Origin: Candidatus Methanomethylicaceae archaeon
Lineage (GTDB): Archaea; Thermoproteota; Methanomethylicia; Methanomethylicales; Methanomethylicaceae
Length of the DNA stretch: 64,000 nt
NCBI GenBank assembly: GCA_026414165.1
Contig: JAOAJN010000002.1
Span: 8,246 to 72,245, forward strand
Direction of reading: 5' to 3'
The notes beneath the pieces were generated by a model. The model did not search any database and was not told the origin of the DNA. It worked only from the letters and a program-made list of their open reading frames with translations. This document shows positions 43 through 64,000 of this stretch, in pieces; position 1 is the first letter of the stretch; every line of letters starts with the position of its first letter. The position numbers and the translations under genes were made by a program.

Positions 43-405
43 TTGACCGAGAAGGTCAAAGATTTCTACGGCGACTATTCGACATTACAGGTACCGCCAG
101 AGGTCTACGGCAGGCTAAAGGGGGCCTCTACAGTCATAAGACCGGAACACTTCCAGTTTGCCAATGCCATCGGAGCGGCCATAGCCAAAGTGAGCGGAGA
201 GGTGGACAGGGTCTTCTCACTGGAGAAGCTCAGCCGGGATGACGCTCTCAGGACTGCGAAGGAGATGGCGATCAAAGAGGCGATAAAGGCTGGGGCAAAG
301 CCAGACACGGTCGAGGTCGTGGAGGTCGACGAGATCCCATTGGCATACCTGCCAGGAAATGCTACAAGGATTAGAGTCAAGGCATGCGGGAACCTTGCAA
401 TTTAA
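43..405 (+). CDS. small stand-alone protein with a hydantoinase/oxoprolinase-type (ASKHA) C-terminal-like motif
   Basis: 120-aa ORF with TTG start at 43, GGTGA just upstream and in-frame TGA-TAG at 34-39, so it does not run off the window. The motif RPEHFQFANAIGAAIA resembles the conserved C-terminal region of hydantoinase_A-type proteins (recall only). Confidence 0.35.
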   Translation: MTEKVKDFYGDYSTLQVPPEVYGRLKGASTVIRPEHFQFANAIGAAIAKVSGEVDRVFSLEKLSRDDALRTAKEMAIKEAIKAGAKPDTVEVVEVDEIPLAYLPGNATRIRVKACGNLAI

Positions 406-675: not shown

Positions 676-1341
676 TTGTTGAATCATGAAGAGATACTCA
701 AGAGTCTAGCGGATTCCGTTATAAGTGGTGATGAGGAGAAGGCGAAGGATTTTGCCAAGAAGGCACTTGAGGCAGGAATAGACCCGTTAACCGCAATAAA
801 TGAGGGCTTGATGAAGGGGATGAGCCAGGTAGGCGACGACTTCAGCAAGCTCAAGATCTACCTGCCCGAGGTTATGATGGCTGCCGAGGCGATGAAGGCT
901 GCCCTATCAATACTCGAGCCTGCAGCACTCCAGAAGGGCAGCGGTGCTATTAAGAAGAGCAAGGTTGTGATTGGGACCATAACTGGAGACATACACGACA
1001 TCGGAAAGAATATCGTTGCAATGCTCCTCAGGGCGAACGGCTTCGAGGTCTACGACTTGGGGAGGGACGTCCCTGTGGACGACCTCATAAGGAAGGCGGA
1101 GGATGTCGGGGCCGACATAATAGCAGCATCCACGCTACTGTCAACATCCATGCCTTACATGGAGGATCTTATCAACTTGCTGAAGGAGAGAAGGCTGAGG
1201 GATAAGTACATCGTAATGGTGGGCGGCGGGCCAGTCACTCGTGAGTGGGCCGCTTCTATAGGCGCGGACGGGTATGGGGACGATGGAGAAGAGGCCGTAA
1301 AGGTTGCAAAGGAGCTTCTGCAGAGGGTGAAGGGTAAATGA
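676..1341 (+). CDS. methyltransferase cognate corrinoid protein (MtmC/MtbC/MttC family, B12-binding)
   Basis: 221 aa. N-terminal helical cap plus Rossmann B12-binding domain with the DxHxxG motif (GDIHDIGKN). GGAGG at 666-670 precedes the TTG start. ATGA overlap with the next gene. Confidence 0.85.
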   Translation: MLNHEEILKSLADSVISGDEEKAKDFAKKALEAGIDPLTAINEGLMKGMSQVGDDFSKLKIYLPEVMMAAEAMKAALSILEPAALQKGSGAIKKSKVVIGTITGDIHDIGKNIVAMLLRANGFEVYDLGRDVPVDDLIRKAEDVGADIIAASTLLSTSMPYMEDLINLLKERRLRDKYIVMVGGGPVTREWAASIGADGYGDDGEEAVKVAKELLQRVKGK

Positions 1342-2705
1342 ACTCCATATGGGAGGTAATAGACAGGGCAGAGACCGGCCCCTATATGGAGGAGAAGGAC
1401 TTCGATCTGAAGGTTGTGGCAAAGAAGTGCAGGGAACTCGTAAAGGAGTACGACATTAAATTTGACCCTAAAGAGATAGTGACCGCGGACGAATCCATGG
1501 CAGATGATGTCTACGAGGCTGGCATGAGGCTCGCCATAGAGGCTGGCATATACTGCATAAACACAAAGAGGATAATTAAATTCGACGAGAGCGAGATCAA
1601 GGAAGGCATACTCTCGGCGCCCAAGGAGCTAGTTATAGGACAGGGTAGAGACTCCAGGATCCTATACGCTAGGGGCGTTGAGGACCCTAGGCGAGCGATA
1701 ATATGCGGCGGACAGGCGGGAGCAGCGATCCCCGAGGATTGGTACCTGCCCATGTCCATATCCTACATGAAGGAGCCCCTTGTTGACATGATCAACAACG
1801 GCGGGCTCGCAGTGGTGGAGGGCAGGAAGGTAAGGACGAACACGCCTCTGGAGATACAGGCTGCGAGAAGGGAGCTCACAATGCTGAGGGAGGCTGCTGC
1901 CCGCGCCGGTAGACCTGGCATCAGCTTCATAGCTGGAGAGAGCAGCGTCTCGGCGCTTGGCGACCTGGCTATCGCCTCGGACAAGTACATGAGGACCTCT
2001 GACGCACACTTGGTGGCACTGCTTAACGAGTTAAAGACCGACTATGATAGGATCTCGAAGGTAGTCAACTTCACTGAGTACGGGGCTTTCAATGTGACCT
2101 TGGTGGACCCTATAATAGGCGGATACGCAGGCGGACCGGAGGGCGTCGCCGTCTGCTTTGTTGCATCTTTCCTTCTTGGCAGGGCGATGTACAGGTCGGA
2201 GTATCACGTCTGCCACCCCATACACTTCCGCTACATGAGCACGAGCGCTGTGGAGTGTATGTGGAACCTGAACATAGTTGGGCAGGCTATGGCAAGGAAC
2301 GCCCCATTCATAATAATGGGTGATGTATGGACCTCCGCTGGTGCTGGGAGCGAGATGATATTCTACGAGATAGCTGCGAACACCATAACCAACGTGGTCA
2401 CAGGGTCTCACCCGCTGGGTGTCTCCGCCACGAACGGGAAGTACCCACACGCCTCGGGGCTCGAGACCAGGTTCATGGCTGAGGTCGCCATCGCTACAGT
2501 AAAGTCAAAACTAAACAGAAAGAATGCAAACGACCTCGTAGTAGGACTTGCTAATGAGTACAAGGACAAAATGGGCAAGCCTGACATAGGCAAACCATTC
2601 CCAGAACTCTATGATGTCAACAAGGTTATACCGAAGCCTGAGTGGAATGCCCTCTACCTTTTAATGAAGAGAAAGATCTCCGAAATGACTGGGCTGGACA
2701 TATGA
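1338..2705 (+). CDS. MtmB-family (monomethylamine methyltransferase-like) protein, pyrrolysine-free paralog 1
   Basis: 455 aa, collinear with methanogen MtmB as recalled (GIYCxxTxRI, GQGRD, AGRPG, LNELK, GGYAGGPEG, GLETRFMAEVA, GKPFPELYDV). Uninterrupted ORF with no in-frame TAG. Confidence 0.85.
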   Translation: MNSIWEVIDRAETGPYMEEKDFDLKVVAKKCRELVKEYDIKFDPKEIVTADESMADDVYEAGMRLAIEAGIYCINTKRIIKFDESEIKEGILSAPKELVIGQGRDSRILYARGVEDPRRAIICGGQAGAAIPEDWYLPMSISYMKEPLVDMINNGGLAVVEGRKVRTNTPLEIQAARRELTMLREAAARAGRPGISFIAGESSVSALGDLAIASDKYMRTSDAHLVALLNELKTDYDRISKVVNFTEYGAFNVTLVDPIIGGYAGGPEGVAVCFVASFLLGRAMYRSEYHVCHPIHFRYMSTSAVECMWNLNIVGQAMARNAPFIIMGDVWTSAGAGSEMIFYEIAANTITNVVTGSHPLGVSATNGKYPHASGLETRFMAEVAIATVKSKLNRKNANDLVVGLANEYKDKMGKPDIGKPFPELYDVNKVIPKPEWNALYLLMKRKISEMTGLDI

Positions 2706-2750
2706 TATTGGTATTGGTATTGGTATGGATGTGAGCGTGGGTTGATCAAC

Positions 2751-4124
2751 ATGAGATCTTACAGGATGGACGAGATCACCAGAAGGGCGTTTGACGGGCA
2801 GTATATGGAAGAGAAAGAATTCGACATGAAGCTGATGAGGAGGGCTAGGGAGCTCGTCAAGGAGTATGACATAAGGTTCGATCCGAATGAGATGATTCCA
2901 ACGGACGACTCCATGGCAGATGATGTCTACGAGGCTGGCATGCGCCTCTTCATCGAGCTCGGATTTTACTGCCAGACCACTAGAAGGTGCATAAGGTTTG
3001 AGGAGGGAGAGGTCAGAGAGGTCCTTAAAACCCTCCCAGAGAGCATCATAATCGGCGAGGGCAAGGATGCCGTTTTTATGCCAATGAGAAGGATCGAGGA
3101 TCCTACACCTCCTGTGATCCACTCTGGACCCACAGGCACTTTATGCACCGAGGGTGACATCTACGTAAAGACGCTGAGGAGCTACGCCCAGGAGAGTGTA
3201 ATAGACTCGGTGGGCGCTGGAACTTTGGCGACGATAGACGGTTTCAAGATAAGAAAGGGCACACCGCAGGAGTTTAGGGCTGCTAGGATGCTGGCCAGGT
3301 GGGCGAGGCAGGCGATAGCCGACGCGGGTAGGCCTGGGATGCACATAAACGATGTTGCGGTCGTCAGCCCGGAGGCAAAGATCTGCGCGCTAGACCCAAA
3401 CCTAGGCATCCGCAAGACGGACGGCCTCCTAGTGGCACAGATGATTGAGCTAAAGACTAGCCTCCAGCACCTGTCACTGATAGAGCATCTCACGAGTTAC
3501 GGCTGCTTCATTGGGAACCTCATGACGCCCATCATGGGCGGATACTCGGGAGGACCAGAGGGCACCGCCATAGTGAATGTCGCGGAGCATATAGCGGGAG
3601 CCTTGTGCTACAACGCCAACTACCACTACCTTAGCCTCACAAATGTGAGGAACCTGAATAATACCGACAGGCAGGGCCTCTGGACCATAAGCATGGTCGG
3701 TCAGGCGCTCGCCAGGAACTCTGAGATCATGAGCATATACGACTGCTACTGTGCCGCTGGACCAGGCACTGAGGTTCTGCTCAGGGAGGCTACAGCAGGC
3801 GGGGTTGCATCATCGGTAAGTGGTCTACACTTGATGGGTTGCGGTTCGTGCGGTGGAAAGCTCGTCGACCACGCCACGGGCTTGGAGGCTAGACTGCTTA
3901 AGGAGGTTGGCGTTGCTGCGGCTGGTATGGGTAGGGAGGATGCCAACGATTTCCTAAGGAAATGGGTGCCCCTCTACGAGGAGTGGCTTGACATAACAAA
4001 ATCGCCAAAGGGTAAGACATTCCAGGAGCTCTACGATCTAGGATCGGCAAAGCCAAAAGATGAATGGGAAGGGCTCTACAGGAAAATTATCAGAGAACTA
4101 ATTGACTTGGGCATCGATCTATAG
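2751..4124 (+). CDS. MtmB-family protein, pyrrolysine-free paralog 2
   Basis: Same motif set (GFYC, GEGKD, AGRPG, IELK, GGYSGGPEG, GLEARLLKEV, GKTFQELYDL). ATG 2751 is chosen over TTG 2742 by alignment with paralog 1. No in-frame TAG. Confidence 0.85.
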   Translation: MRSYRMDEITRRAFDGQYMEEKEFDMKLMRRARELVKEYDIRFDPNEMIPTDDSMADDVYEAGMRLFIELGFYCQTTRRCIRFEEGEVREVLKTLPESIIIGEGKDAVFMPMRRIEDPTPPVIHSGPTGTLCTEGDIYVKTLRSYAQESVIDSVGAGTLATIDGFKIRKGTPQEFRAARMLARWARQAIADAGRPGMHINDVAVVSPEAKICALDPNLGIRKTDGLLVAQMIELKTSLQHLSLIEHLTSYGCFIGNLMTPIMGGYSGGPEGTAIVNVAEHIAGALCYNANYHYLSLTNVRNLNNTDRQGLWTISMVGQALARNSEIMSIYDCYCAAGPGTEVLLREATAGGVASSVSGLHLMGCGSCGGKLVDHATGLEARLLKEVGVAAAGMGREDANDFLRKWVPLYEEWLDITKSPKGKTFQELYDLGSAKPKDEWEGLYRKIIRELIDLGIDL

Positions 4125-4272: not shown

Positions 4273-5640
4273 TCACATAAGAGTATGAACCTCAAAATCT
4301 TCAAGATCCCACACAAACCCTTTGAATGAATCTTTTTCGTATATTTTCTTCCCTACAATGCCGTAAGATTTCTTATAGTTGCCAAGATCCACAAATCCTG
4401 CTTTCTTCTCCAAATCCATAAAAATCTTCTCGACATCTCTCCCTCTCAACTCTTTCCATTTAACTTCAAGGAACAGAGCATATCCTTCTTGTTCGTTCAA
4501 TCCAACGAAATCTATCTCTTCTCCTCCATTCCACCATCTGCCGATCTTGGTAAATTTCATCCTGCTAAACTTTAGCATGAACTGCCTAACCACCTCTTCA
4601 AATATAATTCCAAGATAACTGTTGAAGTCTTTTATTATCAGCTCTACAAGGGCTTCCACATTTTCAGCTTCGATTAGGTCGAAATTTGGTTGCACATAAC
4701 GGAACCAGAATGAGAAGTATGGGTCACTGATGTAATATCTTCCCTTCCTACTTTTCCAGCTAGTATTTATGGGAACCTCTCGCTTTACTAGATCGAGATC
4801 TATGAGGACTGAAAGATACTTCCCGACTTTTGCCCTTTCCATTCCAGTATCGTTCATGATCTCTCCTAATGTTGTCTTTCCCCTTGCTATCGCCTCCATT
4901 ATAGCAAAGTAATTTCTAGGCTCGTAGAGTTCTTCACGCAGAACGAACTGCGCGTCCTGAAGAAGGAATGAGTCGCTTCTAAAATACTTTAACAGGTTAT
5001 CTTTTATGCTCTTCTTATCATCAAATGTTTGCAGATAAGCTGGATTGCCTCCTAGGATCGCGTAAGCTTTCAAGAATTCCTCTAATGAATAATTAGAAAG
5101 AAAAGCCCTCGCATTGAAGAAGTCCATGGCTTTCAGTCTGATCTGCGAAGTCCTCCTACCGTATATAGGGCTCTTATGCCCGAGCATTCTTTCCATCATA
5201 CTGACAGACGAGCCACACAGTATAAGAAAGATTTTGCTTTTAGCAAGTTTTAGATCCCAGTATTCCTGAAGGATCGATAAGAGTTCTCTGCTATCCTTTA
5301 CCAAGTAGGGAAACTCGTCTATAGCAATAATGAGCCGATCCTTCGATTTCTGATAGATATACTCTAGGAGGGCATCCCAGCTATGGAAGGGATTTTTCCT
5401 TAGAACACTGTCGTCGAAGTAAGCAGCGATCCTTTCAGAAAAGCGCTTCAAATTCTCAAGTCCGCTTGTCTCTCTTGCTAAGAGGTAGATGCCTCCATTT
5501 CTCCGGATGAACTCTAGTATTAAAGTGGTCTTCCCTATTCTCCGCCTCCCGTAGATGATTATGAATTCGGAATTATTGCCCCTGACTCTTTCTTGAAGAA
5601 AATTCAACTCTTCTTCTCTATCCACAAATTGTTTACTCAT
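4273..5640 (-). CDS. archaeal AAA-type ATPase with C-terminal DUF234 domain
   Basis: 455 aa. N-terminus FVDREEEL...YGRRRIGKTTL (Walker A) and IAIDEFPYL (Walker B), typical of the Arch_ATPase plus DUF234 architecture. Confidence 0.8.
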   Translation of the reverse strand: MSKQFVDREEELNFLQERVRGNNSEFIIIYGRRRIGKTTLILEFIRRNGGIYLLARETSGLENLKRFSERIAAYFDDSVLRKNPFHSWDALLEYIYQKSKDRLIIAIDEFPYLVKDSRELLSILQEYWDLKLAKSKIFLILCGSSVSMMERMLGHKSPIYGRRTSQIRLKAMDFFNARAFLSNYSLEEFLKAYAILGGNPAYLQTFDDKKSIKDNLLKYFRSDSFLLQDAQFVLREELYEPRNYFAIMEAIARGKTTLGEIMNDTGMERAKVGKYLSVLIDLDLVKREVPINTSWKSRKGRYYISDPYFSFWFRYVQPNFDLIEAENVEALVELIIKDFNSYLGIIFEEVVRQFMLKFSRMKFTKIGRWWNGGEEIDFVGLNEQEGYALFLEVKWKELRGRDVEKIFMDLEKKAGFVDLGNYKKSYGIVGKKIYEKDSFKGFVWDLEDFEVHTLM

Positions 5641-6113: not shown

Positions 6114-7052
6114 CTATTCTTTTGAGAAAGGACTGCCGAGAGCGGCAGGTCCTCTTACTCTTCTACCACCTATGAGGAGTGCTATCAGCGTAACCAGATA
6201 CGGGAGTAGGCTGAGCAGCTGACTTATAGATGCCGATGCTGGACCTATGAGAAAAGTTCCGATCCAAAGCGATAGTGCCTCTGTGAATCCGAATAATAAT
6301 GACCCGGCTAGCGCGCCCACAGGGTTCCACCTCCCCAAGATCACTATGGAGACAGCCACGAACCCCCTCGCGGCAACAATCCTTGTATCAAAGACATTGA
6401 ACATCGAGAGGCAGAGGAGCCCGCCCGCCATCCCGACTAAGATCCCCTCCAAAATGAGGGCTGTGTACCTGATCCTCGAGACATCGATACCCAAGTAGGC
6501 TGCAACTAGCGGGTCCTCTCCAACGGACCTAAGCTTTAGCCCGTAGGAGGTCTTGAATATGAGGTAGTACGTTATGGGAACGGCTATTATCCCAACATAA
6601 ACGAATATGGTCTGATTAAAGAGAACGTCTCCAATGACTGGTATTTGACTCAGCAGGGGTATTGGATATGGCCCTATCAACTCACTGAGGTATGGAAAAG
6701 CTCCCTGCGAGAAAGCAAGGCGGAAGAAGTATAGACAGAGTCCTGCTGCCAAGAGGTTTATCGCCAGACCTGATACGACTTGGTCCAAGTTTATCCTCAC
6801 CACGAGTATACCAAACACAAGTACAGTCAAGATCCCTCCGAGAATTGCCATCAGCAGCCCTATCCAAAGATTTCCAGTTAGGAACGCTCCCATGAACCCT
6901 GTGAATGCGCCGATCAGCATGGCACCCTCTATCCCTAGGTTCAGGATGCCGCCCCGCTCCACAATAGTCTCACCCAAGGATGCCAGCATGAGCGGGGCAG
7001 AGGTCCTTATTCCAGCCGCTATGAATCCAATTATCAGCGCCCACTCGATCAT
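6114..7052 (-). CDS. ABC transporter permease (BMP/nucleoside-type, second permease)
   Basis: 312 aa polytopic membrane protein, 4-nt overlap with the upstream permease, in an operon with a BMP binding protein and a double ATPase. Confidence 0.85.
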   Translation of the reverse strand: MIEWALIIGFIAAGIRTSAPLMLASLGETIVERGGILNLGIEGAMLIGAFTGFMGAFLTGNLWIGLLMAILGGILTVLVFGILVVRINLDQVVSGLAINLLAAGLCLYFFRLAFSQGAFPYLSELIGPYPIPLLSQIPVIGDVLFNQTIFVYVGIIAVPITYYLIFKTSYGLKLRSVGEDPLVAAYLGIDVSRIRYTALILEGILVGMAGGLLCLSMFNVFDTRIVAARGFVAVSIVILGRWNPVGALAGSLLFGFTEALSLWIGTFLIGPASASISQLLSLLPYLVTLIALLIGGRRVRGPAALGSPFSKE

Positions 7053-8110
7053 ATCTTTACCACTCCCTTCTTCTCCAAGTAGCGGAGTATGTATTCTGAT
7101 GCTAAGACAAAGATCACCAAAACCCCTTGGATGAAGTCCACGACCCCCTGTGGTTGGTTCAGAGCTCTAGACATTGTTGTGGATCCGTTGAATATGGCGG
7201 CTAGGAAGATCGAGGCGAGCGCAACGCCCAAGGGATTGTTCTGCCCCAAGAGGGCTACTACTATTCCAGTGTAGCCATAGCCTGGCGATAGAGAAGGCCT
7301 CATCCTGAACTGGATGCCCGAGACCTCGACGAATCCGGCGAGTCCTGCTAGGGCACCACTTATTATGAGCGCAAGTAACATGGTCCTTCCTACATTTATG
7401 CCTCCATACTTCGCTGCCTCCGGGTTTTCACCCACAGCCTTCAGCTTGTACCCGAATGTAGTCCGCATCATCAGGAAGTGAACCAGTGGCAGCGCCACAA
7501 ATAGTGCTATTACAACACCTAAGTGCAGGCGTGTGTAGGGGACCAGCACTGGAAGCACTGCTGAAGAAGGAATCTGCGCCGACTCAGGAAACAGCGTGTC
7601 TGGGCTCCTGAACGGGAACGCTAAGAGCCACTGGATCAGGTATATCGATACATAGTTCATCAGGAAGGTTGTAATCACCTCGTTGATGCCAAGCCTCGCC
7701 CGCATAAAAGCTGGCACGGAGGCCCAGAGAAGCCCTCCCACGATCGACACAAACAGCGATATTATCAGGGTAAGGGGAGTGTTTCCCAACGCCACCGCCG
7801 TTATAGTGCCTAGCATCGCACCCATGTATAGCTGTCCCTCTGCGCCGATATTCCATACCTTGCACCTGAATGATATGGCAAGTCCTAATGAGACCAGCAG
7901 TATAGGCGTGGTCCTGACCAAGGTCTCTGCCGCCAGAGATATATTACCAAAGGCGCCGGCAAAGATGTAGTAGAAGGCAAGGAACGGATTCGCGCCTGTA
8001 AGCAGGAATAGTATGGACGTCAAAAGCAGGGCAAAGCCTATCGAGATCCCTGCCTTGTAGAGCGATCTTATCGTTCCCTTAGACAAAGATAGAGGCAGTT
8101 TTAGTTCCAT
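7049..8110 (-). CDS. ABC transporter permease (BMP/nucleoside-type, first permease)
   Basis: 353 aa polytopic membrane protein in operon context. Confidence 0.85.
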   Translation of the reverse strand: MELKLPLSLSKGTIRSLYKAGISIGFALLLTSILFLLTGANPFLAFYYIFAGAFGNISLAAETLVRTTPILLVSLGLAISFRCKVWNIGAEGQLYMGAMLGTITAVALGNTPLTLIISLFVSIVGGLLWASVPAFMRARLGINEVITTFLMNYVSIYLIQWLLAFPFRSPDTLFPESAQIPSSAVLPVLVPYTRLHLGVVIALFVALPLVHFLMMRTTFGYKLKAVGENPEAAKYGGINVGRTMLLALIISGALAGLAGFVEVSGIQFRMRPSLSPGYGYTGIVVALLGQNNPLGVALASIFLAAIFNGSTTMSRALNQPQGVVDFIQGVLVIFVLASEYILRYLEKKGVVKI

Positions 8111-8121
8111 TTTTCTCCTCT

Positions 8122-9702
8122 CTAAACAGGCGCCCCGAGCATTAGCCTTGCTATCTTCTGAATATCGCAGTTATCACGTGTGAACTCCCCAACTATCCTC
8201 CCTTCAAAGATCACCAAGATCCTGTCGCTGAGCCTAACGATCTCGTCGAGATCCGCGGAGACAAGCAAGATCCCAACACCCTTCGACTTCAACTCCATCA
8301 TCTTCTGGTGAACACCCTCCGATGCCTTCACATCCAACCCAGCCGTCGGCTGCTCGGCTATTAGGATACTCGCCCCATTTGAGAGCTCCCTGGCGACTAC
8401 GAGCTTTTGGATGTTTCCGCCAGAGAGGCTGTTGACTGTGATCCATGGATCTGAGGCCTTTATGCCAAACCTCGTTATCAACTCGGACGCAGACCTCTCT
8501 ATAGCCCCCTTGTCCATAATCATTCCCTTACTGTAAGGAGGATCCTCAAAGTTCTTCAAGACAAGGTTCTCGGATACACTCATCGTCAGGATCACTCCTC
8601 TCCTCATCCTATCCTCGGGTATGTATGCAACCCCGTTCCGTATGATGGACTTGGGTGGATTGTTCGTCAGGTCACAGTTCTTTATCAAGATCGTCCCTGA
8701 CTCCGCCCTCCTCAGACCTGTAATCGCCTCAACCAGCTCCTTCTGTCCGTTGCCTGCAACGCCCGCCATCCCCAGGATCTCTCCCGAGTGGAGTACGAGG
8801 CTTATACCCTTAACCGCGATTTCTCCGCGGTCCCCCTTTACCTTGAGGTCCTTTACTAGGAGTATGGGATCTCCTCTACCCACGTGCTCAATCTTGAGCG
8901 AGGGACAGAAGCCCTCAACCACTAGGGAGGCAAGTTCCGACTCATTACTATCCTTAGTCATCAGGGTCTTCACGACCCTGCCTCCCCTCATTATTGTCAC
9001 TCTGTCACTTATAGCCAGGGCTTCTCTGACTTTATGAGTTATAATTATTATGGATTTGCCCTTGGACTTCAATTCCCTAATCATTCTGAAGAGGTCCTCG
9101 ACCTCGATAGGTGTGAGGACCGAGGTAGGCTCATCAAGTATAAGTATCTTCACATCCTGACAGAGGAGGCGTAGTATCTCAACCCTCTGCCTCAAGCCTA
9201 CCGGCAACTGCTCAATTCTTGCGTCTGGGTCTATCTTCAGGTTCAAGACTTCGGAAACAGACTTTATCTTCTCCTTTACATGATCTAGGCTCAGCCTGCC
9301 CTTCAGTGGTAGGCTCAGTGCTATGTTCTCCGCAACCGTGAACGATGGTATAAGTGTAAAGTGTTGGTGGACCATCCCTATCCCTAAACTGACGGCTTTG
9401 AGCGGACTATCTATATCCACTTTTTTGCCGTCGATATAGATCTCTCCAGAATCTGGCTTAAGACACCCGGAAATGATTTTGACCAATGTTGTCTTACCAG
9501 CACCATTCTCGCCGAGGATTGCATGGACTTCGCCCCACATGACGGATACGCTCACGTCTCTGTTTGCAACTATACCGTTTGGGTAAGTCTTATTGATCCC
9601 TTTAACATAGAGTGCGTATTCGCTGCTTGGATGCTGGTCTGCCTGAATGGTGGTTGCCTTGCCCTCAACTGACCTCTTTAAAAAAAATAGAGGATTTTGC
9701 AT
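8122..9702 (-). CDS. ABC transporter ATP-binding protein (two fused ATPase domains)
   Basis: 526 aa. GENGAGKTT Walker A, LSGGNIQK-type signature, ILILDEPT Walker B, and a second degenerate cassette (GVAGNGQ). Confidence 0.9.
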   Translation of the reverse strand: MQNPLFFLKRSVEGKATTIQADQHPSSEYALYVKGINKTYPNGIVANRDVSVSVMWGEVHAILGENGAGKTTLVKIISGCLKPDSGEIYIDGKKVDIDSPLKAVSLGIGMVHQHFTLIPSFTVAENIALSLPLKGRLSLDHVKEKIKSVSEVLNLKIDPDARIEQLPVGLRQRVEILRLLCQDVKILILDEPTSVLTPIEVEDLFRMIRELKSKGKSIIIITHKVREALAISDRVTIMRGGRVVKTLMTKDSNESELASLVVEGFCPSLKIEHVGRGDPILLVKDLKVKGDRGEIAVKGISLVLHSGEILGMAGVAGNGQKELVEAITGLRRAESGTILIKNCDLTNNPPKSIIRNGVAYIPEDRMRRGVILTMSVSENLVLKNFEDPPYSKGMIMDKGAIERSASELITRFGIKASDPWITVNSLSGGNIQKLVVARELSNGASILIAEQPTAGLDVKASEGVHQKMMELKSKGVGILLVSADLDEIVRLSDRILVIFEGRIVGEFTRDNCDIQKIARLMLGAPV

Positions 9703-9713
9703 AGGGGGACCCC

Positions 9714-10748
9714 CTATGGTTTTGGATCGGCAAAGTTTGGCGTAGATAGTGGGACCAATTTCCCGTCAACCGTCCACTTGATGGTGCCGTTGATTATAAG
9801 ACTCTCAAGATTGTCAGCAAAAGCCTTCACTGCAGTGAGATTCTTTGCGAACGCATTGTTCCAAACGAATTTGGATCCGCCCGTCTTCATGGTCGTGTAG
9901 TAGACGCCGGCAGGGAAGTTGCCCGACTGTGCACCTTGTATGAAGCTCTTTACCATTGGGTATAGATCCCATGCGACGCTTCCCACCACCACGTCGGGCG
10001 CCAGACTGTTCTGGTCTACGATATTGCCAAACGCGTAAGCAAGCACCTTGCCGCTTGGGTCCTTACACGCCTCAAAGACCCCGTACCGCTCTGCATAGAT
10101 AACGTCGACACCAGCTGCTATTAGTGCACTCGCTGCGGTCTTCGCTTTGGCAGGATCGTACCAAGAGTTTATGTAAGAAATGGTCACATTTATGTTTGGA
10201 TTGACGTACTTCGCTCCCGCTATGAACCCATTCAGCAGGTTGTTCACATCACCTACTCCAGGGAACGCGGTGACTATGCCCAGCTTGTTCGTCTTTGTGA
10301 TCTTTGCAGCAATGGCCCCTGCCTCGAACGCTGCCTCTTGGATGAAGTAGTCATAGAGTGCCAAGTTCTTCCCAAAGTTCTTGCAGAGACCGGATCCCTG
10401 AGCGAAGTACACGTTCGGGAACTGGGGCGCTAGCCTGTCGGAAGTCTCCCAGAACCCCCAGCTGTGCGGCATGATCAACTTGTAACCGCTGTTTATATAC
10501 TCGCGCATCACCCTCTCAACATCCGACTCAGATACCTTCTCAGAGTACGCATAATCTATTCCGAGCTCGTTCTTTGCCTTCAGTAAGGCATTGTGCAAGA
10601 CTTGGTTCCAAGTCTCCTCTATGGGCGTAACATAGATCGCGGCAACCTTGAACTTCTGAGCTGGTGCGATTATTGAGGTGTATGCATATGCCGCTCCGAC
10701 GACTACTATCGCAACAACAACAATTGCAACTACCAAGGATGTCTTCAT
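9714..10748 (-). CDS. BMP-family (basic membrane protein / PnrA-like) ABC substrate-binding protein
   Basis: N-terminal membrane anchor MKTSLVVAIVVVAIVVV followed by a periplasmic-binding fold typical of BMP proteins. ATG 10748 with GGTGG upstream is preferred over the track start 10769. Confidence 0.8.
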   Translation of the reverse strand: MKTSLVVAIVVVAIVVVGAAYAYTSIIAPAQKFKVAAIYVTPIEETWNQVLHNALLKAKNELGIDYAYSEKVSESDVERVMREYINSGYKLIMPHSWGFWETSDRLAPQFPNVYFAQGSGLCKNFGKNLALYDYFIQEAAFEAGAIAAKITKTNKLGIVTAFPGVGDVNNLLNGFIAGAKYVNPNINVTISYINSWYDPAKAKTAASALIAAGVDVIYAERYGVFEACKDPSGKVLAYAFGNIVDQNSLAPDVVVGSVAWDLYPMVKSFIQGAQSGNFPAGVYYTTMKTGGSKFVWNNAFAKNLTAVKAFADNLESLIINGTIKWTVDGKLVPLSTPNFADPKP

Positions 10749-10845
10749 ATAATTCCACCCAGACAGCACTATCTCTTTTTTTTTGACATGGTATATAAAA
10801 ATTTGCCTTTTTAAATACAGAAAATTTTATATAAACATATAAAAA

Positions 10846-11586
10846 TTAGAGGCGGAAGAAGTTCTTAGCGTTCCACGTCGTGATCTTTACGACTTCCTCT
10901 TCTGTCACACCCTTTATCTCGGCAACCTTCTTCAAGGCATAAATCAGGTTGGCTGGCTCGTTTCTGACCCCTCTAATGGGGGAGAGCACCGGCGAGTCCG
11001 TCTCTAACATCAACGATTCCAGGGGCAGATTCTTGACCAGCTTCTGCTTCTGCTGGGAGTAGACCACCGATGTAGGTATAGAGAAGTAAAAGCCCCTCTC
11101 CGCCGCCATCCTCGCATCGCCAGATTTACCATCAAATGCATGCATGAGGACCCTATCGGCTCCCTCAGAGTAGAGAACCTCCAGCGCGGCACGACCAGCG
11201 CTCCTTGAGTGGACCACCAATGGCAGCTCTCTCCTCATGGCGAGCCTTATACTCCTCCTGAAGAACTGCTCCTGAAGATCCCGTATACCATGGTCCCTTG
11301 CATAGAAGTGGTCCAGCCCGACCTCGCCTACTCCGACAATGTGCTCGCTTTCCACTAGCCTCTCAAAATCTCGATACTTCTCCTCTGACAGCGTCATGGG
11401 ATCGAAACCTACATTGAGCGAAATGAAGCCTGGCATAATCGCCAAGACCTCTCTTGCTCTCCCGATTTCCGACGGATCCGTTATTGAGATTATTATATGT
11501 TCGAGACCTGCCTCCTTTGCCCTTTTTAGGACCTCAGGAAGATCACTATAAGAATTGTCAGTCAAGTGTGCATGCACATCTATCAT
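10846..11586 (-). CDS. tatD: TatD-family metal-dependent hydrolase
   Basis: 246 aa. MIDVHAHL start, GEVGLDH and H..D metal-ligand motifs. Confidence 0.85.
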   Translation of the reverse strand: MIDVHAHLTDNSYSDLPEVLKRAKEAGLEHIIISITDPSEIGRAREVLAIMPGFISLNVGFDPMTLSEEKYRDFERLVESEHIVGVGEVGLDHFYARDHGIRDLQEQFFRRSIRLAMRRELPLVVHSRSAGRAALEVLYSEGADRVLMHAFDGKSGDARMAAERGFYFSIPTSVVYSQQKQKLVKNLPLESLMLETDSPVLSPIRGVRNEPANLIYALKKVAEIKGVTEEEVVKITTWNAKNFFRL

Positions 11587-62276: not shown

Positions 62277-63518
62277 TTATTTCCGCTTGACGATTGGCTC
62301 GAGTATCTCTACGATGTCCACCATTTTTAGTGGGGACTTTGTCATCTCAATGGCATCAGTGAGGTTTCTCCAGCAGAATGGACATGTGCTTGTTATTACT
62401 GATGCACCTGTGGACTCTGCCTCTCGTACTCGCTTCGCCGAAGTCTCTAAGGAGTAGTCTGCGAAACCGCCTCTAACACCGCCGCCTGCACCGCAGCAGA
62501 ATGAGAACTTTCTGTTTCTGTACATTTCGACTAAGTTTGCGCCGGGTATTGCCTTGAGCACATTGCGCGGTGCATCGTAAACCTCAGCATGCCTACCGAG
62601 GTGGCATGGGTCGTGGTATGTCACAGTGCTGTTGAAGCTACCAGTGAACTCTATCTCTCCCTTATTGATCATTTCCTCAATCAGCTGAATTGTGTGCACG
62701 ACCTTTACGTTCTCCATCTTGCCGAACTTATCGATGTAGCCCTCTGGTGGGTCCATTGTGTAATCCCTTGAAAGGGTCCTGTAGCAACCAGCACATGTAG
62801 TTATGAAGCCGCTCGCACCATACTTGTCCGGAAGCGCCTTATTATGCTCTACGAACTCCTTAGCCAGGTCATACTGACCGGTTCTGAGCAGTGGTGACGC
62901 GCAGCACCACTCGTCTTGTGAGACGGTGAAGTCTACCTTTAGTTTCTGAAGCAGTTTAACAGTGGCCAGCGCAACACTCTTCTGCCTGTAGGAGGCCGTG
63001 CAGCCCGCGAAATAGATGTACTCTGCCTTCTTCGGTAGTGAGGATCTGATACTGCTGGGCAACCAGTCAAGTCGGTTCTCGTGCTTCTCTAGGTATGGGT
63101 TTCGGTTTACACCAATAGTGGAGCTCCACTTCTTAATGCCCTCTGGTATAGCTACGTTCTGCTTCCATGCCTCGCTTCTGAGGGCTTCAAACATCCTCAG
63201 AATGTATGGCTTTATGTCAGTCTCACACATCTGCTGGCAGGCACCACACCCCGTACATGTGAACAGAACGTGTGCAACAGCATCAGACCATTGGAGCTTG
63301 TTGCTGAGCAGTCCTTTTGCTATTGCAGCTTTTCCTCTGCTACCTCTATATGAGTCAAAGTGGTACTTATCACCTTGGACACATAGCATTGCTGCAAAGT
63401 TCGCTGTCTTGCCCCACTCATATCCATATTTGCAGTTTCCACAGTGAGTACACATGGAAATGTAATCATAGATTTTCGCTAATTCTTTTAGTGAAGTGTT
63501 CTTTAATTCCAGTGCCAT
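62277..63518 (-). CDS. Fe-S oxidoreductase with two ferredoxin-type clusters and two CCG domains (GlcF/HdrD-like)
   Basis: CTHCGNCKY, CTGCGACQQMC and the CCG motifs CCASP and FCCGAGGG. Confidence 0.8.
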   Translation of the reverse strand: MALELKNTSLKELAKIYDYISMCTHCGNCKYGYEWGKTANFAAMLCVQGDKYHFDSYRGSRGKAAIAKGLLSNKLQWSDAVAHVLFTCTGCGACQQMCETDIKPYILRMFEALRSEAWKQNVAIPEGIKKWSSTIGVNRNPYLEKHENRLDWLPSSIRSSLPKKAEYIYFAGCTASYRQKSVALATVKLLQKLKVDFTVSQDEWCCASPLLRTGQYDLAKEFVEHNKALPDKYGASGFITTCAGCYRTLSRDYTMDPPEGYIDKFGKMENVKVVHTIQLIEEMINKGEIEFTGSFNSTVTYHDPCHLGRHAEVYDAPRNVLKAIPGANLVEMYRNRKFSFCCGAGGGVRGGFADYSLETSAKRVREAESTGASVITSTCPFCWRNLTDAIEMTKSPLKMVDIVEILEPIVKRK

Positions 63519-63532
63519 TGGTATTGCCTCCT

Positions 63533-64000
63533 TTATCTAATCCCTAGCTTGCCTGGGTTCATGATATTGTTTGGATCCAACATATCCTTTATTTTAGTCA
63601 TAAGGTATACGTAGCCAGCGTCTGCAGCAGCATTCAGTTCGTTCATGTACTCCACTGGCGGCTTGTACGGTAGCATGCCCAATGGTATCCCTGCCCTGAC
63701 GCACTCAACCATGGCATTCCTTGCTGCTTTGACTGACTCTGGGTTTCTCTTGTCGAAGGGCGTCATGCACCTGAGCATACCGTAGTGAGCACCTTGGTAG
63801 TCTGTGAACCTAGTAGCTGGCGATAGACCATGCCTGATGTATATTTCCTTCCACTTCTCATACAATATTGGCCAGCTCTTGCAGGGCGCAAATGTTCCTG
63901 GCCAAGCAAGACCTCCACCGCATGATTTGGAGTAGTTCTTGGTTGAGCCAACGATCCTGCTCGGCAGCTCTGTCCTTCCTCTCTTTGCCTCTTCAGGATA
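63533..64000 (-). CDS. FAD-linked oxidase (GlcD / D-lactate dehydrogenase-like), C-terminal part; continues beyond the window
   Basis: The frame is open from 63533 to the window edge by hand translation. The C-terminal LDPNNIMNPGKL is typical of FAD-linked oxidase C-termini. Paired with the GlcF-like gene. Confidence 0.6.
   Translation of the reverse strand, partial: YPEEAKRGRTELPSRIVGSTKNYSKSCGGGLAWPGTFAPCKSWPILYEKWKEIYIRHGLSPATRFTDYQGAHYGMLRCMTPFDKRNPESVKAARNAMVECVRAGIPLGMLPYKPPVEYMNELNAAADAGYVYLMTKIKDMLDPNNIMNPGKLGIR

Follow-up and report, generated by a model that had tools for sequence, protein, structure and literature searches.

Pyrrolysine (Pyl) is regarded as the feature that opens methylamines to methanogenesis. 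What, then, do methyltransferases of the monomethylamine (MtmB) family act on when they lack it? This question is raised by a three-gene operon at positions 676–4124 of a stretch of 64,000 nucleotides (the window) from contig JAOAJN010000002.1 of a Candidatus Methanomethylicaceae archaeon (GCA_026414165.1). The operon encodes a B12-binding corrinoid protein followed by two MtmB-family paralogs, P1 and P2. In the known corrinoid relays (Mta, Mtm, Mtb, Mtt, Mtg), a first methyltransferase (MT1) methylates Co(I), a second (MT2) passes the methyl group to coenzyme M (CoM), and RamA or RACo repairs Co(II). Our favored reading, held with a little less than even confidence, is that this region forms the core that activates the substrate in a corrinoid-dependent, Pyl-independent N-demethylation module, in which an imported methylated purine-like compound feeds methanogenesis. 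A sequence-only reading of this stretch had suggested that the MtmC-like protein and the two Pyl-free MtmB-like proteins form a demethylation system for one or two methylated compounds. That core idea stands, but its novelty is reduced, the operon being class-wide and the family large and already known.

A Corrinoid Protein Coupled to Two MtmB-Family Methyltransferases

The operon consists of the following genes:

676–1341, plus strand: corrinoid (B12-binding) protein, MtmC/MtbC/MtgC-like, 221 amino acids, TTG start; PF02607 and PF02310, TIGR02370
1338–2705, plus strand: P1, Pyl-free MtmB-family methyltransferase (MT1), 455 amino acids; PF05369, match to 1L2Q
2742–4124, plus strand: P2, second Pyl-free MtmB-family methyltransferase, 460 amino acids counted from a TTG; PF05369, match to 1TV2

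The corrinoid gene is preceded by GGAGG (666–670), ahead of its TTG start. Its product combines a B12-binding domain (PF02310, 99 bits) with a B12-binding_2 cap (PF02607, 84 bits) and belongs to TIGR02370, “methyltransferase cognate corrinoid protein” (220.6 bits for a curated cutoff of 215.3). The His-on motif DxHxxG (D105-x-H107-x-x-G110) lies within GDIHDIGKN at residues 104–112 (nucleotides 985–1011), and the stop codon of the gene overlaps the start of P1 as ATGA (1338–1341). Both the motif and this coupling had been pointed out in the sequence-only reading, which had also aligned the two open reading frames (ORFs) with MtmB end to end. The profile search that it proposed bears this out: PF05369 (MtmB; cutoff 25) matched P1 with 366.3 bits over model positions 3–448 of 450 and P2 with 345.1 bits over positions 6–450. 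Matches to Methanosarcina barkeri MtmB were similarly complete, 1L2Q aligning with P1 over residues ~5–455 (E = 4.8e-71) and 1TV2 with P2 end to end (E = 3.3e-71). The two paralogs are 40% identical to each other (BLASTP) and ~32–33% identical to M. barkeri MtmB.

AlphaFold models of P1 and P2, built on alignments of 61–65 sequences, reached predicted local distance difference test (pLDDT) values of 96.6 and 94.5. The comparison with M. barkeri MtmB, also proposed beforehand, was performed with Foldseek and covered 454–457 columns; it gave a template modeling (TM) score of 0.96 and a root-mean-square deviation (rmsd) of 1.4 Å for P1 against 1NTH, and a TM score of 0.94 and an rmsd of 1.5 Å for P2 against 1L2Q. 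The models thus assign both paralogs the MtmB TIM-barrel fold of 1NTH and 1L2Q, and the role of P1 and P2 as the MT1s of a corrinoid relay is strongly supported.

No model of NCBIfam release 20 matched P1 or P2 at E ≤ 0.01 and no exact-sequence match for P1 was found, while public NCBI records name the orthologues of both “monomethylamine:corrinoid methyltransferase.” The start of P2 is ambiguous (TTG at 2742 or ATG at 2751), ATG 2751 being likelier because the alignments of orthologues begin there. The spacer between P1 and P2 (2706–2741) carries three tandem copies of TATTGG (TATTGGTATTGGTATTGGTATGG) directly ahead of the P2 start.

The Pyrrolysine Position and Its Pocket

The M. barkeri structure 1L2Q reads GRPGMGVXGPE, in which X is Pyl202. 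The corresponding residue is Ile198 in P1 (ATA, 1929–1931; motif GRPG-ISFI-AGES) and Asn203 in P2 (AAC, 3348–3350; motif GRPG-MHINDVAV), as previously read from the letters. This assignment was obtained by HMMER, by a MAFFT alignment of 228 sequences, and from the strand/helix register of the two AlphaFold models. A mis-assignment of the position had been named beforehand as a possible flaw, and BLASTP between the paralogs indeed offered another register for P2, with VAVVSPE placed over MGVOGPE and Val208 as the Pyl equivalent. It was ruled out by the 228-sequence alignment, by the strand/helix register, and by the near-gapless Foldseek superposition (457 columns, rmsd 1.5 Å). Among the 227 aligned homologues, all uninterrupted and 430–520 amino acids long, none has a non-standard residue in the Pyl column.

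The pocket around this position has changed as well, according to a residue-level comparison based on secondary-structure register and alignment columns. Glu229 and Glu259 of 1L2Q, acidic residues reported to flank the Pyl ring in MtmB (Hao et al., 2002/2004), are both replaced by Leu in P1 and P2, and position 259 is Leu in 227 of the 228 aligned sequences. Gln333 has become Asp in both paralogs (and in 197/228 sequences), and Met313 has become Trp, a replacement found in at least 90% of the Pyl-free homologues. There is no in-frame TAG inside P1 or P2, in agreement with the sequence-only reading; TAG is in fact the stop codon of P2 itself and terminates 16 of the 65 ORFs of the window (25%), unlike the TAG-poor stop usage of Pyl-using methanogens (PMC12180501). 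With neither the Pyl codon nor Glu229 and Glu259, P1 and P2 are not canonical Pyl-dependent MtmB proteins, and their chemistry does not involve Pyl.

In some P1-like homologues, the residue exactly at the Pyl position is an ordinary Lys (GRPGMPIKAGES), among them one from Ignisphaera (L028, 4564–5922) and the sequences P0050, P0052, and P0053.

Conservation of the Operon and Age of the Two Paralogs

The best matches of P1 and P2 came from metagenome-assembled genomes (MAGs) of Ca. Methanomethylicia (Verstraetearchaeota, Methanosuratincolia), with 75–93% identity. A survey with one genome per GTDB species yielded 21 loci, all from Methanomethylicia. The order corrinoid protein-P1-P2 and the motifs at the Pyl site were kept in all 21 wherever the contig permits, with intact reading frames and 73–93% identity over the three genes. 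P1 orthologues were 79–93% identical in the 21 loci, and the corrinoid protein, upstream of P1, was 74–95% identical in the related loci that reach far enough upstream. Two complete genomes of cultured strains are among the orthologues: Ca. Methanosuratincola verstraetei LCB70 (CP186953; P1 84%, P2 75% identity) and M. petrocarbonis LWZ-6 (CP130488, orthologues at ~870.9–874.4 kb; P1 83%, P2 77%). The operon corresponds to the “mtmBC” locus found throughout the class Methanomethylicia, which already has an annotation in public genomes, those of these two strains among them. For the MtmB family, an exhaustive search gave 963 clusters when sequences were grouped at 50% identity, of which 238 had E ≤ 1e-30; most were uninterrupted and ~455 amino acids long.

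The two paralogs differ in their signatures. P1-type sequences share GRPG-I-[HSG]-[LF]-[LI]-A-[GA]-ES, while the P2-type motif GRPG-MHINDVAV is conserved from Methanomethylicia to Desulfurococcales, Anaerolineae, and Moorella. A P1-like gene paired with a P2-like gene was also present in a Desulfurococcales MAG (L035) and in L030/L031; the recurrence of this pair outside Methanomethylicia indicates that the duplication is old and that both copies have been maintained.

P2 also has four Cys residues (335, 337, 367, and 370; nucleotides 3744–3752 and 3840–3851) that are invariant in its 20 closest Methanomethylicia-type orthologues. Two more distant members of the P2 clade keep three of them, and they are missing from P1, M. 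barkeri MtmB, and the bacterial P2-like clade. In the model, Cys335/337 and Cys367/370 lie where two successive barrel strands have their C-terminal ends, which would allow a metal site or disulfides.

A Bmp-Type Importer Accompanies the Module

The best clue to the substrate is provided by an adjacent importer, which comparative context assigns to the system and which the sequence-only reading had overlooked. Its genes are:

9714–10769, minus strand: substrate-binding protein (SBP) of the Bmp/PnrA family with an N-terminal membrane anchor; PF02608, 143 bits
8122–9702, minus strand: double-domain (tandem) ATPase of the ATP-binding cassette (ABC) type; PF00005 in two stretches
7049–8110, minus strand: BPD_transp_2 permease; PF02653
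6114–7052, minus strand: BPD_transp_2 permease; PF02653 (154.6 and 132.6 bits for the permease pair)

Together, these genes (6114–10769) form a Bmp/PnrA-type (CUT2-like) ABC importer operon that converges on the P2 end of the methyltransferase operon, with a single gene inserted between the two. In each of the 16 related loci long enough to show it, P2 has a permease orthologue directly downstream, and the orthologous ABC ATPase adjoins MtmB modules in L001 (Methanosuratincola), L028–L031, L034, and L035. The window SBP is 47–59% identical to the SBPs flanking MtmB genes in Methanosuratincola, Ignisphaera, Desulfurococcales, and one further lineage; the archaeal SBPs found beside MtmB modules are 47–73% identical to each other across lineages, which suggests that they travel with the module.

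The closest solved relatives of the SBP are AtzT (6PI5; E = 8e-34, 121 bits), a binder of guanine (110 nM) and adenine (2.5 μM) (PMC6834077), and a Brucella protein with adenine modelled in its site (3S99; E = 1e-26). From the ligand site of AtzT, the window SBP retains the stacking Trp, one Ser, and one acidic residue.

The inserted gene (4273–5640, minus strand) encodes an archaeal AAA protein with ATPase_2, helix-turn-helix, and DUF234 domains, and lies in a stretch with a GC content of 39.6% as compared to ~50%. It looks like an insertion because it is unmatched in 24 related loci, including three (L001, L008, and L022) in which P2 is followed directly by the permeases. On the other side, 77 bp upstream of the importer genes and co-directional with them, is a gene for a TatD-family hydrolase (10846–11586, minus strand), found at the same place in Methanosuratincola (L001) and not in the other lineages.

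The Same Module in Other Lineages

Outside Methanomethylicia, the survey of gene context comprised nine independent loci. Linkage between module and importer was observed in five gene arrangements, in archaea and bacteria: convergent in the window and Methanosuratincola; divergent in L030/L031 and in the Desulfurococcales MAG L035; with an MtmB gene within the transporter operon in Ignisphaera; with the Bmp gene within the module operon in Moorella naiadis; and with the importer co-directional, after the corrinoid gene, in the bacterium L034.

In Ignisphaera (L028), a co-directional string runs from Bmp through a P1-like MtmB, the ATPase, and two permeases to an MtaA-like URO-D protein, and is adjoined by the corrinoid gene and a second MtmB. 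In L030/L031, the importer is divergent from the corrinoid-MtmB-MtmB genes, with a RACo activase at the end. The Desulfurococcales MAG L035 brings together RACo, importer, corrinoid protein, P1-like and P2-like MtmB, and an MtaA-like protein, that is, a complete system. An MT2 of the MtaA/CmuA family thus adjoins the module in L035 (249.8 bits, cutoff 235.4) and, with a score below the cutoff, in L028 (174.1 bits), and a RACo activase does so in L030, L034, and L035.

In the bacterial loci, the methyl group would be passed to tetrahydrofolate (THF) or a thiol. In L034, the order is RACo, P2-like MtmB, corrinoid protein, Bmp importer, and a homocysteine-S-methyltransferase-like gene. In Moorella naiadis (L033, 4466–14588), a PucR-type regulator, Bmp, the corrinoid gene, and a P2-like MtmB are followed by a methyl-THF:corrinoid methyltransferase, an adenosine-analogue deaminase, and an XdhA-like protein; the first of these scored 304 bits (cutoff 259) and the second 707 bits (cutoff 522). 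In a further bacterium (L036, 617–17174), adenine deaminase, xanthine dehydrogenase subunits, and adenosine deaminase precede a corrinoid gene and a P1-like MtmB, with an MttB-family gene, a second corrinoid gene, and the Bmp importer further along.

Pyl-type genes were also encountered. A full-length homologue with a GPE-type Pyl site (P0381) was tried as a guide to context and set aside as uninformative for P1 and P2, being surrounded by a Pyl-type split mtmB, URO-D, and Amt, and no Bmp. A MAG (L025, 86–3533) encodes a full-length Pyl-free MtmB (GRSGMPVIGPES) and, 5 kb away, a 200-amino-acid MtmB fragment, a corrinoid protein, a URO-D protein, and an ammonium transporter; such a fragment is typical of a Pyl gene split at its TAG, so that Pyl and non-Pyl MtmB coexist in one genome.

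A Candidate Function

The importer linkage that survives rearrangement, together with the presence of both clades in bacterial purine-catabolic clusters, points to an imported N-methylated purine-like heterocycle. In the favored reading, the Bmp-type importer would take up a hydrophilic N-methylated heteroaromatic compound, the lead candidates being methylated purine bases or nucleosides. P1 and P2 would be anciently diverged TIM-barrel enzymes, each binding its own methylated substrate or methyl position, and would present the methyl group to Co(I) of the shared His-on corrinoid protein. The resulting methyl-Co(III) would be unloaded by an MT2 of the MtaA/MtbA type onto CoM, for reduction to methane with H2, while oxidized Co(II) would be repaired by an activase of the RamA/RACo type, both MT2 and activase being encoded outside the window. 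Monomethylamine use by strain LWZ-6 would then represent a second or side activity of the same enzymes, as measured for MtqB, a Pyl-free MtmB homologue described below.

Several purines with an N-methyl group (m7G, m1A, and m3A) carry a positive charge at that nitrogen. Such cationic N-methylpurines would fit the rule that Pyl-free relatives take substrates with an already activated methyl group, and the conserved pocket Asp and Trp would suit them as ligands. The more specific proposal, that enzymes of the P1 and P2 clades are methylpurine (nucleobase/nucleoside):corrinoid methyltransferases supplied by a dedicated purine-type ABC importer, is possible but rather doubtful in our judgment. Gene content, fold, lack of Pyl, the changes in the pocket, conservation of the operon, and its linkage to the importer and to purine-catabolic genes are established here; we infer the identity of the substrate, the direction of methyl flow, and the link to methanogenesis.

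Several observations weigh against a purine-like substrate. Three hydrogen-bonding purine contacts of AtzT have other residues in the window SBP (N for Y45, E for N218, and Y for N220), so that its ligand is probably not plain guanine or adenine, and the sole NCBIfam match of the SBP is a “putative B6” model below threshold (107 bits for a cutoff of 400). The importer of Methanomethylicia is convergent with the operon and not co-transcribed with it. Two loci have no Bmp: L032, with an ECF-type transporter and MtrH, and L037, with an ABC_membrane-type gene. Purine-catabolic neighbors were found in two bacterial loci only, and the enzymes there are 43–48% identical to P2 and P1. Every functional inference comes from gene neighborhood, the nearest assayed homologues being no closer than ~34% identity. 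As to Pyl-type mtmB and pyl genes, our view of the related genomes covers loci of 21 kb. Finally, growth of LWZ-6 on 10 mM monomethylamine favors the simpler annotation (PMC12244365).

Alternative Explanations

This simpler annotation would make P1 and P2 Pyl-independent monomethylamine:corrinoid methyltransferases of the monomethylamine branch of methyl-reducing methanogenesis, next to an unrelated importer. Among the alternatives, it fares best, although we still consider it less probable than improbable. LWZ-6, whose orthologues are 83 and 77% identical to P1 and P2, reduces methanol and monomethylamine with H2 but does not use dimethylamine, trimethylamine, betaine, or methanethiol (PMC12244365). 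Public records label the genes as monomethylamine type, as do studies of Methanomethylicia MAGs, which take mtmB as evidence of methylamine use (PMC10033731). Pyl has been seen in the methyltransferases of Methanosarcinales and Methanomassiliicoccales only, and not in those of Verstraetearchaeota (PMC6421429), PylS being reported in the literature only for Methanomethylicus V1; moreover, MtqB has measurable monomethylamine activity without Pyl. However, Pyl, Glu229, and Glu259 have given way to other residues in P1, in P2, and among the aligned Pyl-free homologues, and the module also occurs in non-methanogens (Ignisphaera, Desulfurococcales, Moorella, and Anaerolineae). A small amine needs no purine-type importer, whose linkage in five arrangements would be hard to explain, and two paralogs kept side by side at 40% identity argue for two substrates.

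Alternatively, the module could serve salvage or detoxification by removing methyl groups from methylated nucleobases or nucleosides that the importer brings in; these groups would be a by-product and not an energy substrate. This would agree with the presence of Bmp, corrinoid protein, MtmB pair, and MtaA-like protein in Ignisphaera and Desulfurococcales, from which methanogenesis is not known, and with the bacterial versions, which pass the methyl group to THF or to a homocysteine-type acceptor beside purine-degrading enzymes. In an obligate methyl-reducing methanogen, however, methyl-corrinoid unloaded by MtaA onto CoM enters methanogenesis, and the operon is universal in the class. We regard this reading as unlikely.

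Still less probable is a function of P1, P2, or both as quaternary-amine methyltransferases of the MtqB type, with tetramethylammonium, choline, or a related betaine as substrate. MtqB, the sole characterized Pyl-free MtmB homologue, has such activity (PMC13044021), the known Pyl-free relatives of MttB all use quaternary amines, and the conserved pocket Asp and Trp (Gln333 and Met313 positions) would suit a cation. Against this, P1 and P2 are 31–34% identical to the Pyl-free homologue of Methanohalobium, with differing site motifs, and 32–33% identical to M. barkeri MtmB, whereas MtqB was placed beside the Pyl-MtmBs; LWZ-6 does not use betaine, and the ligands known for Bmp-family SBPs are N-heterocycles and not quaternary amines of the aliphatic type.

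Although Pyl, Glu229, and Glu259 have been lost, there is hardly any chance that P1 and P2 are remnants of Pyl-containing mtmB genes that have decayed and lost their catalytic activity, given the frames intact at 73–93% identity in 21 species, the clade-specific invariant motifs, the very confident models, the ~963 family clusters at 50% identity (mostly full length), and the coupled translation of P1 with the corrinoid gene.

The Rest of the Window

Pfam and tRNA scans of the window revealed no URO-D-type MT2, no RACo/RamA activase, no pyl or mcr gene, and no tRNA among its 65 ORFs and 64 kb, and the Rfam scan was also empty; the absence of MT2 and of a RamA-like activase had been noted in the sequence-only reading. 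Of the complete set of MT1, corrinoid protein, MT2, and activase, the window thus lacks the last two, which are presumably encoded elsewhere in this genome. The remainder of the window is of the housekeeping type (proteasome, IscS/IscU, LysX lysine/arginine biosynthesis, deoxyhypusine synthase, and acyl-CoA synthetases). At 62277–63865 (minus strand), an HdrD/GlcF-like Fe-S protein with CCG domains follows the C-terminal end of an FAD-linked oxidase, and the two may form a dehydrogenase pair of the lactate or glycolate type.

Upstream of the operon, an ORF of 120 amino acids (43–405, plus strand) is a deletion chimera. Window bases 1–103 correspond to the beginning of a gene for an NCS1-type permease in L005, the closest relative (240–342; 95% identity), and residues 20–120 of the chimera match the last 100 codons of a hydantoinase-A gene located 4.5 kb further on (L005, 4881–5183); L005 carries there the permease, a small ORF, an S-Me-THD-like gene, and the hydantoinase. 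A hairpin with a T-run follows this remnant at 468–482; it was the one useful result of a scan for sigma-70 promoters and terminators, which is not meaningful for an archaeon.

Significance

The only MtmB-type enzymes at this locus are without Pyl, and the locus is conserved throughout a class of non-euryarchaeal methanogens, one isolate of which can grow on monomethylamine. This leaves two possibilities: monomethylamine can be activated without Pyl, or the widespread “mtmB” label is mistaken and these genes have another substrate. If the same enzymes demethylate monomethylamine without Pyl, this would overturn the Pyl requirement for methylamine-dependent methanogenesis. If the substrates are N-methylated purines or related heterocycles, this would add a new class of methanogenic substrates, correct the inference of methylamine use from marker genes in metagenomes, and give a function to two large clades of a family of ~1,000 clusters that has a single characterized Pyl-free member. 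Should the substrates be methylpurines, Methanomethylicia, bacteria, and non-methanogenic archaea would harvest methyl groups from N-methylated heterocycles derived from nucleic acids or plants, a previously unrecognized class of methyl donors for methanogenesis and acetogenesis. The pure culture of LWZ-6 and the established cob(I)alamin assay make the substrate question directly testable.

In the literature that we searched, corrinoid-dependent demethylation of methylated purines led only to work on DNA repair, and publications mentioning Methanosuratincola gave no detail on methyltransferases. The linkage to an importer and to purine genes, the paired-paralog unit, and the doubt about “mtmB” as a sign of methylamine use were not found there and appear to be new here.

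Comparison With Known Systems

With MtmB and MtmC of M. barkeri, the window proteins share the Pfam family, the whole-length fold, the gene order (corrinoid protein, then methyltransferase), and 45 positions conserved family-wide, including the GRPG before the Pyl site. Unlike M. barkeri MtmB, P1 and P2 are without in-frame UAG and have Ile or Asn for Pyl202, Leu for Glu229 and Glu259, Asp for Gln333, and Trp for Met313; there are two paralogs per corrinoid gene, and an ABC importer is linked to them.

The sequence-only reading knew of no characterized Pyl-free MtmB homologue, a statement now outdated by the description in March 2026 of the Methanococcoides methylutens Q3c protein MtqB (ACT9XH_RS04775), the first such enzyme (Front Microbiol 2026, PMC13044021). 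MtqB methylates cob(I)alamin with tetramethylammonium (37 nmol/min/mg), choline (42), and, weakly, monomethylamine (11). In the MtmB tree of that study, based on ~1,061 Pyl and non-Pyl NCBI sequences, most of them labelled “unknown function,” MtqB was placed next to the Pyl-MtmBs (PMC13044021); membership in the MtqB clade would call for its conserved Met/Cys/aromatic signature at the site. The likeness lies in a Pyl-free MtmB-family member with an adjacent cognate corrinoid protein (MtqC), and MtqB demonstrates that the MtmB fold works without Pyl, even with weak monomethylamine turnover. P1 and P2, however, probably belong to other clusters, with differing site motifs and transporter context, MtqB being placed here by the description in the paper. 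The named Pyl-free homologue of Methanosarcinaceae that we recovered (from Methanohalobium, with Met at the Pyl position) has site motifs that differ from those of P1 and P2 (31–34% identity). The Pyl-free sequences nearest to M. barkeri MtmB are 38–42% identical to it, as compared to 32–33% for P1 and P2; a profile search from these nearest sequences retrieved Methanomassiliicoccales, Asgard, Bathyarchaeia, and one Methanohalobium, and no Methanococcoides entry.

The non-Pyl members of the MttB superfamily (MtgB for glycine betaine, MtpB, MtcB, and MtyB) follow the same logic, in that Pyl was lost and the substrate switched, and their systems likewise comprise MT2, activase, and a cognate corrinoid protein (PMC9768040). 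They differ by their family (PF06253), with a remote structural match to P1 and P2 (TM ~0.5, 11–13% identity). In “Ca. Formimonas warabiya” on dichloromethane, no protein was induced more strongly than a Pyl-free MtmB homologue (PMC9768040). For the importer, AtzT (6PI5) and 3S99 are the best solved relatives of the window SBP, with a low overall similarity.

The closest counterparts remain the “mtmBC” loci of LWZ-6 and LCB70, which are true orthologues in their three-gene order, the motifs at the Pyl site (GRPGISFIAAES and GRPGMHINDVAV), and the downstream Bmp-ABC importer. They differ from the window by their sequence (75–84% identity), by the additional ATPase_2/DUF234 gene that the window has between P2 and the importer, and by the region upstream of the operon, which is occupied by aldehyde:ferredoxin oxidoreductase genes in Methanosuratincola and by the deletion remnant in the window.

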